A DNA stretch of 43,121 nucleotides from a virus. Taxonomy: Duplodnaviria > Heunggongvirae > Uroviricota > Caudoviricetes. Below, piece by piece: positions 28,557-30,494 of this stretch (position 1 is its first letter; every line of letters starts with the position of its first letter). The notes under the pieces were generated by a model that saw only the letters and a program-made list of their open reading frames with translations, was not told where the DNA came from and ran no database searches. The DNA lies in the IMG/VR virus record IMGVR_UViG_2529292921_000020, one strand, 5' to 3'. The position numbers and the translations under genes are program-made.

Positions 28557-30494
28557 GTGACTCTTAAACGGGCCTGTTCCCTGCTGACGGTGAAATCCTT
28601 CAGTGAGGATGAACGAGTGATCACCGGGATTGCGTCAACGCCTTCTCCGGATCGGGATGGTGACATCCTGGAGCCGGAGGGCGCGGAGTTTGGCAGTGCG
28701 ATCCCGTTTCTCTGGCAGCATGACCATTCCCGCCCGGTGGGGCAGTGTACGGTGCGCCGGGTCAGCGAAGGGCTGGAAATCACGGCAACACTGGTGAAGC
28801 CCGTACCGGATATGCCGTCGCAACTGGCTGCCCGGCTGGATGAGGTCTGGGCGGCCATTAAGACCGGGCTGGTCAGGGGGCTGTCCGTGGGCTTCCGTCC
28901 CCATGAATACACCTTTCTGGACGGAGGCGGACTGCATTTTCTGCGCTGGGAACTGATGGAGGTGTCTGCCGTCACCGTGCCCGCGAATGCGGAATGCACC
29001 ATCCGGACCATTAAATCTTACGACCGCCCGTTTTCTGCCGCGTCCGGCAACCGGAAACCGGTGGTGAAAATCGCATCTTCTGCCGGCGCTGCGGCACAGT
29101 CAACAACCGTTTTTCATAAGGAAAAGACCATAATGAATATTGGCGAACAGATTAAAAGTTTTGAAAACAAGCGTGCAGCGCTGGCAGCCTCCCTTGAGGA
29201 GGTCATGACCAAAGCCGCAGAGGAAGGGCGCACGCTGGATGTGGAGGAGGAAGAGCATTACGACAACACCGCAGCGGAAATCCGTCAGGTGGATGCGCAC
29301 CTGAAGCGCCTGCGTGAACTGGAAGCCGGTAAGGCCGCCACGGCGCAGCCGGTGAAACAGGCCGGTAACGGGAATGTGGCCGCGGTGGCTTCTGCGCCGG
29401 TGATCCGTGTGGAGCAGAAACTGGATAAGGGGATTGGCTTCGCCCGCTTTGCCAAATCGCTGGCTGCGGCTAAAGGCGTCCGATCTGAAGCCCTGGAAGT
29501 GGCCCGTCGTCAGTATCCGGATGACAGTCGTCTGCATCATGTCCTGAAATCGGCAGTGGGCGCGGGGACCACCACGGATCCGCAGTGGGCAGGCAGCCTG
29601 TCTGAATATCAGGAATACGCACAGGACTTTATTGATTACCTGCGTCCGCAGACCATTATCGGGCGATTTGGTCAGGGCGGGATCCCTGCACTTCGTCAGG
29701 TGCCGTTCAATATCCGTGTGCACGCCCAGGTGTCCGGCGGTGCTGCCGGCTGGGTGGGTGAGGGTAAGGCAAAACCCCTGACGAAGTTTGATTTTGAATC
29801 CATCACCTTCAGTCATGCGAAGGTGTCGGCCATTGCGGTACTGACGGAAGAATTGATCCGTTTTTCCAGTCCGGCTGCTGATGCACTGGTCCGTAATGCG
29901 CTGGCGGAAGCGGTGGTGGCGCGTCTGGATACAGACTTTGTGGACCCGAAAAAAGCCGCAGTGGCAGATGTCTCCCCGGCGTCCATCACCCATGATGTGA
30001 AGGGCACGGCATCAACCGGTAACCCGGATGCGGATGCAGAGGCTGCGTTTGGACAGTTTGTGGCAGCAAACCTGCAGCCCACCGGTGCGGTCTGGCTGAT
30101 GTCCAGCACCAATGCCCTGGCACTGTCCATGCGTAAAAATGCGCTGGGTCAGAAGGAATACCCGGACATGACCCTGCTGGGTGGCTCCTTCCAGGGGCTG
30201 CCGGTGATTGTCTCCCAGTACGTGGGTGACCAGCTGGTGCTGGTGAATGCCCCGGATATTTATCTGGCGGATGACGGAGGCGTGGCAGTGGATATGTCCC
30301 GCGAGGCATCACTGGAAATGCAGTCTGAGCCGACCGGCGACAGTACCACGCCGTCCCCGGTGGAGCTGGTTTCCATGTTCCAGACAGGCAGCGTGGCCAT
30401 CCGTGCGGAGCGCTGGATCAACTGGCGTCGTCGCCGTACCGCGGCGGTGGCGGTGATCACCGGAGTGAACTACGGCAGTGCGTCCGGCGGCTGA
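28557..30494 (+). CDS. Fused HK97-type prohead protease and major capsid protein
   Basis: 645-aa ORF; N-terminal ~170 aa have prohead-protease motifs (ITGIAS...GDILEPEGAEF...WQHD...LSVGF...LMEVSAVTVPAN), followed by an HK97-fold capsid region. Confidence 0.75.
   Translation: MTLKRACSLLTVKSFSEDERVITGIASTPSPDRDGDILEPEGAEFGSAIPFLWQHDHSRPVGQCTVRRVSEGLEITATLVKPVPDMPSQLAARLDEVWAAIKTGLVRGLSVGFRPHEYTFLDGGGLHFLRWELMEVSAVTVPANAECTIRTIKSYDRPFSAASGNRKPVVKIASSAGAAAQSTTVFHKEKTIMNIGEQIKSFENKRAALAASLEEVMTKAAEEGRTLDVEEEEHYDNTAAEIRQVDAHLKRLRELEAGKAATAQPVKQAGNGNVAAVASAPVIRVEQKLDKGIGFARFAKSLAAAKGVRSEALEVARRQYPDDSRLHHVLKSAVGAGTTTDPQWAGSLSEYQEYAQDFIDYLRPQTIIGRFGQGGIPALRQVPFNIRVHAQVSGGAAGWVGEGKAKPLTKFDFESITFSHAKVSAIAVLTEELIRFSSPAADALVRNALAEAVVARLDTDFVDPKKAAVADVSPASITHDVKGTASTGNPDADAEAAFGQFVAANLQPTGAVWLMSSTNALALSMRKNALGQKEYPDMTLLGGSFQGLPVIVSQYVGDQLVLVNAPDIYLADDGGVAVDMSREASLEMQSEPTGDSTTPSPVELVSMFQTGSVAIRAERWINWRRRRTAAVAVITGVNYGSASGG

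Follow-up and report, generated by a model that had tools for sequence, protein, structure and literature searches.

If a phage encodes its maturation protease and its major capsid protein in one uninterrupted reading frame, does the gene make a single polyprotein or more than one product? This question is raised by a 43,121-nt stretch of viral DNA (Caudoviricetes; IMG/VR record IMGVR_UViG_2529292921_000020), referred to here as the window, which holds an open reading frame (ORF) at positions 28557-30494 in which a first-pass annotation had recognised an HK97-type prohead protease continuing into an HK97-fold capsid protein. The ORF is a head gene of a lambdoid, HK97-like siphophage that is present as a prophage in Escherichia coli. 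We find that this one frame encodes, one after the other, a protease, a linker predicted to be disordered, a scaffolding hairpin like the delta domain and a capsid protein with the HK97 fold, and conserved start signals at the internal junction suggest that the gene probably gives two products and not a single polyprotein, a point that the first-pass annotation had not raised. Positions are those of the full window, amino acid numbers count from the GTG at 28557, and all features of the gene lie on the plus strand.

The ORF for the long product consists of 645 codons with a GTG start and no in-frame stop. A Shine-Dalgarno (SD) sequence for the full-length product, AGGAGG, can be read at 28546-28551, 5 nt before the GTG, and in most related loci GGAGG or GGAG stands ahead of the aligned ATG start. 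All 1938 bases are 100% identical to the coding sequence (CDS) of WP_000173031.1, labelled 'phage major capsid protein', in NC_011601.1 (E. coli O127:H6 E2348/69), with the same coordinates. Three profiles locate the domains within the protein: Pfam Peptidase_S78 (PF04586) at aa 48-152 (34.7 bits, cut-off 21), Pfam Phage_capsid (PF05065) at aa 386-635 (53.1 bits, cut-off 24.2) and the HK97 major capsid family TIGR01554 of NCBIfam at aa 204-584 (78.1 bits, cut-off 27.5). A fourth, PHROG 617 ('major head protein'), aligns aa 1-639 with its profile positions 7-626 (expect value [E] 1e-261) and so spans the whole fused protein, indicating that this library already has a family of full-length fused proteins. 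The claim of a single uninterrupted frame is thus borne out by the ORF list, by the identical RefSeq CDS and by 27 intact related loci, and the domain search and structure prediction that the first-pass annotation had suggested as checks found both domains, each with the expected fold. Because the ORF is intact, both domains are present with the folds expected, the catalytic residues are conserved and the gene occurs widely, we regard it as close to certain that the fusion is real and functional.

The N-terminal domain (aa 1-152, 28557-29012) is an HK97-type (S78) prohead protease with an assemblin-like fold (clan SH), in agreement with the first-pass annotation. Besides the match to PF04586, BLASTP against HK97 gp4 gave 29% identity (E 4e-9), and in this alignment Ser110 of the window corresponds to Ser114 of gp4 while His55 falls one residue off gp4 His65 within an ungapped stretch. 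The catalytic residues of gp4 are reported to be His65 and Ser114 (MEROPS S78; Duda et al. 2013). The candidate catalytic residues of the fused protein are His55 and Ser110, plus Glu135, and in 142 fused representatives His55 is conserved in 100% and Ser110 in 99%, with Glu135 and Ser137 at 99-100%; the protease is apparently active. An AlphaFold (AF2) model of aa 1-165 reached a predicted local distance difference test (pLDDT) score of 75.6 and a predicted template modelling (pTM) score of 0.72. When this model was searched against the PDB with Foldseek, the best 31 matches were all herpesvirus assemblins (proteases) or T4 gp21 (best E 1.7e-3), and the template modelling score to T4 gp21 was 0.56. 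The stricter equivalog TIGR01543 scored 46.5 bits, under its cut-off of 59. A C-terminal capsid-targeting tail of the gp4 type has no counterpart in the fused protein: the gp4 alignment stops at residue 162 of 225, and in place of the tail a disordered linker runs on into the capsid protein.

This linker (aa 153-192, 29013-29132) is variable and predicted to be disordered. The least conserved part of the whole protein is aa 166-195, with a column identity of 0.21-0.25; indels are seen in the linker even between close relatives; and in the AF2 model the mean pLDDT is ~27-40 over aa 141-190, with aa 142-192 below 50. Directly after Met193 there follows a helical hairpin (aa 193-262, 29133-29342) with helices modelled at 195-223 and 229-260 (pLDDT ~80). 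The family profile also finds the capsid-forming phage-inducible chromosomal island (cf-PICI) EcCI2, aligning with residues 4-64 of its capsid protein (9gyi_B; E 3.6e-7), and the TIGR01554 alignment begins at model position 3, aa 204. On this modelling, aa 193-262 are a delta-type scaffolding domain at the usual N-terminus of a capsid protein, and its removal at maturation is predicted. A second disordered stretch (aa 263-292) separates the hairpin from a helical segment (aa 293-332) that leads into the capsid body (about aa 335-645; segment and body together 29433-30491).

That the C-terminal part is an HK97-fold capsid protein, as the first-pass annotation had it, is established by TIGR01554, by PF05065 and by Foldseek, which matched the modelled capsid part to PDB entries with E from 1.6e-10 and probability 1.00, nearly all of them HK97-fold capsids (Bxb1, D3, HK97, T5). 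In the AF2 model of this part the A and P domains have pLDDT 75-90, and the N-arm and E-loop are of low confidence. The full-length model is poor (pLDDT 61, pTM 0.35), as expected for a protein built as beads on flexible strings; it was used for domain boundaries only, and the relative placement of domains in it is meaningless. A PDB sequence search with the whole protein found only a distant capsid match, to Bxb1 (E 0.0017), and BLASTP of the capsid part against HK97 gp5 was non-significant, so that direct homology between the two was rejected at the pairwise level and no equivalents were obtained for the maturation site or for the isopeptide cross-link residues of HK97 (Lys169, Asn356, Glu363). 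A weak, non-significant alignment of aa 340-374 with gp5 107-141 is a hint only, and would put the maturation cleavage near aa 335-340. Two conserved motifs, Ala161-Ala162-Ser/Thr-Gly within the linker and Lys331-Ala-Ala-Val-x-Ala ahead of the capsid body, are no more than candidate cleavage sites.

The fused gene is widespread. Of 5426 complete E. coli genomes 1255 carry it, four of the E2348/69 lineage in identical form and hundreds of others in near-identical form. The packaging-head block in which it lies (25600-33700) has 90-99.7% DNA identity to 95 phage records, including those of the Shiga toxin (Stx)-converting phages 2851, YYZ-2008, 1717 and Stx2a_WGPS6, and Stx phage records label the gene 'major head protein/prohead protease' or 'major capsid protein'. 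At ~75% identity, Salmonella, Enterobacter, Klebsiella, Serratia, Pantoea and Kosakonia have proteins of 644-648 aa in which both Pfam domains are present. When one genome was scanned for each species, 38 loci emerged, of which 27 were verified to hold an uninterrupted fused ORF of 632-667 aa; these include Proteus, Hydrocarboniphaga, Rhizobiales (43-50% identity) and a metagenomic bin, and the fused layout is kept at 40-78% identity over Enterobacterales, Hydrocarboniphaga, Rhizobiales and metagenomes. Searching a library of representatives clustered at 50% identity gave 1197 proteins at E < 1e-30, and among the best 150 of these both domains were fused in 142, that is, in at least 142 clusters at 50% identity. 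Together with the RefSeq sequence, which is 100% identical, the 27 loci and the 142 representatives indicate that the fusion is neither a chance event nor a sequencing artefact. A separate observation from the scan concerns an Arsenophonus endosymbiont of Aleurodicus floccissimus, in which the terminase, fused capsid, portal and connector genes (L022, 6001-7928) are broken by frameshifts or stops; this module is a decaying prophage.

A few unfused relatives indicate how the fusion arose. In a Devosia (L028) and in Chelativorans sp. Marseille (L029) the protease ORF closes with '...IRSIKRT*' a few bases before the capsid start, and a separate capsid gene in another frame begins 'MSKIAEQITAFEQKRASL' (L029, 'MSKYAEQIAAFEQKRASL') with AAAGGA or AGAGGA ahead of it. 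The start Met of these two capsid proteins aligns with Met193 of the window ('MNIGEQIKSFENKRAAL'), and five unfused capsid proteins in the representative library (P0200, P0229, P0251, P0264 and P0257) begin at query residues 193-196. Since unfused capsid genes start at the equivalent of Met193, we infer that Met193 is the ancestral capsid start and that the fusion came about by loss of the protease stop.

The fused genes have kept more than the codon at this position. The junction codon is ATG in all 27 fused loci, except for a GTG in Hydrocarboniphaga, and Met is found at the junction in 129 of the 142 fused representatives (the rest have mostly Val or Leu), at a site that borders the most variable region of the protein. 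In the window an SD-like AGGA, within AAGGAA, lies at 29119-29122, 10 nt before the ATG at 29133. A core of AGGA, GGAG or GAGG is present 6-10 nt upstream of the junction start in 24 of the 27 fused loci, compared with 6.9% of codon positions gene-wide. This core is retained in two codon registers and across differing encoded residues (Lys-Glu, Lys-Gly, Gln-Gly, Gln-Glu-Gly, Lys-Glu-Ala, Thr-Gly, Glu-Val), a persistence that points to selection acting on the RNA and not on the peptide. In every listed locus where translation of the motif gives glycine, it does so through GGA, a codon that makes up 9.7% of glycine codons gene-wide. A 60-nt segment with the internal ATG at its centre has 30% GC versus 60% for the fused gene of the window, and forms its sharpest GC trough; across the 27 loci the GC content at the junction is the gene minimum or nearly so (median percentile 0.005), and the junction RNA folds no better than shuffled sequence.

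Because Met193 is the ancestral start and the ATG, the SD core, the GGA codon and the GC trough have all been retained, the reading that we favour, with moderate confidence, is that the fused gene is nested: an internal start would make protease-free scaffold-capsid subunits, and the full-length chain would be a minority subunit that tethers the protease to the shell. Ribosomes starting at GTG 28557 would make the 645-aa protease-scaffold-capsid chain. Those starting at the ancestral ATG 29133, which has been kept together with its own AGGA site in an AT-rich, unstructured stretch, would make a putative scaffold-capsid chain of 453 aa (29133-30494), and this short product would supply most of the capsid subunits. 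As the scaffold and capsid parts are identical in the two chains, long and short chains would build the procapsid together. A fraction of the subunits would then bring the protease in, covalently attached, an arrangement that would replace the C-terminal targeting tail of free HK97 gp4. After assembly the protease would cut off itself, the linker and the scaffolding domain, giving the mature capsid protein. The ratio of long to short product would be set by the two initiation sites.

Several points weigh against this proposal. The internal SD (AAGGA, 10-nt spacing) is weaker than the upstream AGGAGG, and the short product need not dominate. By mean anti-SD energy the junction takes only 14th place among 627 alignment columns; the stronger columns among other SD-like spots coincide with conserved Glu-Gly or Gly-Gly residues. 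Anti-SD energy by itself is thus not decisive, and the weight of the argument lies on a motif that has been kept although the protein varies there. The 27 loci are phylogenetically related, so that the figure of 24 of 27 overstates their independence, even though synonymous saturation has been far exceeded between the Enterobacterales, Proteus/Phlomobacter, Hydrocarboniphaga, Rhizobiales and metagenomic lineages. The AT-richness of the junction could stem in part from a linker rich in Lys, Asn and Ile. No report on expression or processing of the fused gene was found in the literature searched, nor any ribosome profiling, N-terminal sequences or procapsid proteomics for this phage group. Finally, the copy in the window carries an insertion sequence (IS) at the head-closure/gp10 junction and may not make infectious particles.

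The strongest alternative is that the gene makes only a polyprotein, so that every subunit is a 645-aa chain with its own protease and is self-cut after assembly. The internal ATG and AGGA would then be an evolutionary leftover, or would be kept for reasons at the protein level, such as a cleavage or recognition site. It is consistent with this view that the stronger ribosome-binding site belongs to the upstream start and that the annotations checked give one product for the ORF. Packing would also permit it: by our own rough estimate, 415 copies of the protease-linker-scaffold part (~36 kDa) would fill about half of the interior of a T=7 procapsid. In addition, gpO of bacteriophage P2 is reported to be a single full-length protease-scaffold chain that processes itself. 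However, in lineages that have diverged to ~40% identity a leftover start signal should have eroded in the most variable segment of the protein, yet the fused genes still have the ATG, an SD core at the distance expected of a start, the rare GGA codon and the GC trough. A polyprotein leaves the persistence of start signals at the RNA level unexplained, and we consider it possible but rather unlikely as the sole product. The remaining alternative, that separate genes merely look fused through sequencing error or through a recent frameshift or stop loss in a dead prophage, might draw on the IS element in the head-completion region of the window prophage and on the few relatives that are split (L028, L029) or degraded (L022), but is effectively refuted by conservation and has only the slightest probability, given the identical and near-identical E. 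coli copies described above, sequenced Stx-converting phages that carry the fused gene at 90-99% identity, and fused ORFs of matching length, with catalytic residues conserved, in the 27 loci of many genera and the 142 representatives.

The surroundings of the gene are those of a packaging and head module. An HNH endonuclease gene (25617-25982) is followed by the genes for the small terminase (TerS, 26273-26836) and the large terminase (TerL, 26833-28494), the latter directly upstream of the fused gene. The portal gene comes after the fused gene (30706-33291, plus strand; the ORF extends from 30610 to 33291, and 30706 is its likely start by the RefSeq CDS) and matches Phage_portal (PF04860, E 6.6e-81) and TIGR01537 (E 2e-104). 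Beyond it lie a head-tail connector gene (33288-33614), a head-closure gene and a gene resembling HK97 gp10. The first-pass annotation had the portal gene following the capsid gene and the usual order inverted, and rightly so: the order here is TerL, fusion, portal, whereas in HK97 it is TerL, portal, protease, capsid. The order TerS-TerL-fusion-portal-connector is kept from Enterobacterales to Rhizobiales in the related loci where those genes were recognisable.

The fused gene is also bounded by two hairpins. Between TerL and the GTG, a terminator-like hairpin with a 7-bp stem and a T-run (28519-28536, plus strand; tail TTTATTTT) was detected by a consensus scan; it was the sole site in a scan of 28300-30900, in which shuffled sequences gave a mean of 2.7 sites, so that by itself it is not significant. 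After the stop codon there is a GC-rich 9-bp hairpin without a T-run (30509-30530, plus strand) with a folding energy of -22.1 kcal/mol (z -2.85 against shuffles). The HK97 record annotates a 'putative terminator' before gene 4 and another right after gene 5, at equivalent positions, which suggests that the protease-capsid pair moves and is regulated as a unit.

A number of other features were observed nearby. A 73-aa ORF between the capsid and portal genes (30539-30760), which overlaps the portal start and is hypothetical in RefSeq, matched no NCBIfam family; it is conserved in position at 31-58% identity in 19 other related loci, all in Enterobacterales. In the 893-aa portal ORF the HK97-type portal domain (Pfam match at aa 86-414) is followed by a C-terminal extension of ~450 aa, in which a 162-nt (54-aa) unit is repeated in tandem 3.3 times at 95% identity (32293-32825) and whose terminal domain has a weak, sub-threshold match only, to a carbohydrate-binding module (CBM_5_12, E 0.0015). 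This extension is found to a variable extent in enterobacterial relatives, is partly matched in Rhizobiales and is absent in Hydrocarboniphaga, and some phage records annotate the portal as two 'portal' genes. Further downstream, an IS4-like element of the ISEc13 family (~33950-35500; transposase ORF 33973-35262 on the minus strand) sits at the 3' end of the head-closure gene, upstream of the gp10-like gene. In the E2348/69 reference the head-closure and gp10-like genes are intact and overlap, and an IS at this site was found in no complete E. coli genome of the collection; this prophage copy may be defective in head completion. Elsewhere in the window, the region ~11000-14000 has a low GC content (36-37% versus 50-59% elsewhere) and is possibly a foreign insert or a moron region.

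The fusion as such is already known: it is annotated in phage and bacterial records, and similar fusions form a standard annotation category, on which the first-pass annotation was silent. As a bare observation it matters little, and the comparative result has modest value. The nested reading may be new, though it could stand in subscription literature outside our search. If it is true, annotations miss the second product of a gene that about one in four complete E. coli genomes and many Stx-converting phages carry. The nested layout would also offer a simple account of how a maturation protease is loaded and dosed without the targeting tail of HK97 and, judged by the start signals, would hold for over a hundred fused lineages and not be peculiar to this prophage. 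HK97-type phages would then be linked to the nested protease/scaffold strategy of lambda, herpesviruses and an archaeal virus.

The closest counterparts of the fused gene are those of the long-tailed Stx and related lambdoid phages 2851, YYZ-2008, 1717, Stx2a_WGPS6 and JLK-2012 and of E. coli prophages (PHROG 617), which have the same gene in the same gene order with no difference of substance; only the window has an IS at the downstream head-closure/gp10 junction. The actinobacteriophage 'major capsid and protease fusion protein' (SEA-PHAGES) and the NCBIfam family NF045541 ('prohead protease/major capsid protein fusion protein') are fusions of the same kind but belong to different sequence families. 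Membership of NF045541 was rejected, since the fused protein scored 54 bits against a cut-off of 525 with a match over aa 48-287 only, and PHROG 4523, a fusion analogue, matches only aa 93-249. HK97 itself has a protease of the same family as the fused protein, and in HK97 too the scaffold is built into the N-terminus of an HK97-fold capsid protein; in both, the capsid follows directly after the protease and the pair is flanked by hairpins. In HK97, however, protease and capsid are two genes in different frames with a stop between them, and the portal gene stands ahead of them. The C-terminal ~60 aa of gp4, described as capsid-targeting, give way in the fused protein to a covalent disordered linker to the scaffold, and the stretch from the scaffold hairpin to the capsid body (aa 263-335), whether it is removed or retained, exceeds that of HK97 in length.

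Nested genes are known from lambda (C/Nu3), the herpesvirus HSV-1 (UL26/UL26.5), the archaeal virus HFTV1 (gp17/gp17.5) and the malacoherpesviruses, in which a protease is encoded in frame with a scaffold and an internal start yields a more abundant, protease-free product. In the nested genes of lambda, herpesviruses and HFTV1 an N-terminal assemblin-type protease precedes an in-frame scaffold, and the covalent link delivers the protease into the procapsid. The fused gene resembles them in its order of protease, linker and delta-like hairpin in one frame and in its conserved internal start signals. The short product has been demonstrated experimentally in the lambda, herpesvirus and HFTV1 systems, whereas for the fused gene it is predicted from sequence signals. 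The shared C-terminal part of those genes is a free scaffolding protein, whereas in the fused gene it would be the scaffold domain together with the whole capsid protein, so that the protease would be tethered to the shell subunit. If the nested reading is true, this would be a third layout of protease delivery beside lambda C/Nu3 and UL26/UL26.5, in which the part shared by the two products is the capsid protein itself.

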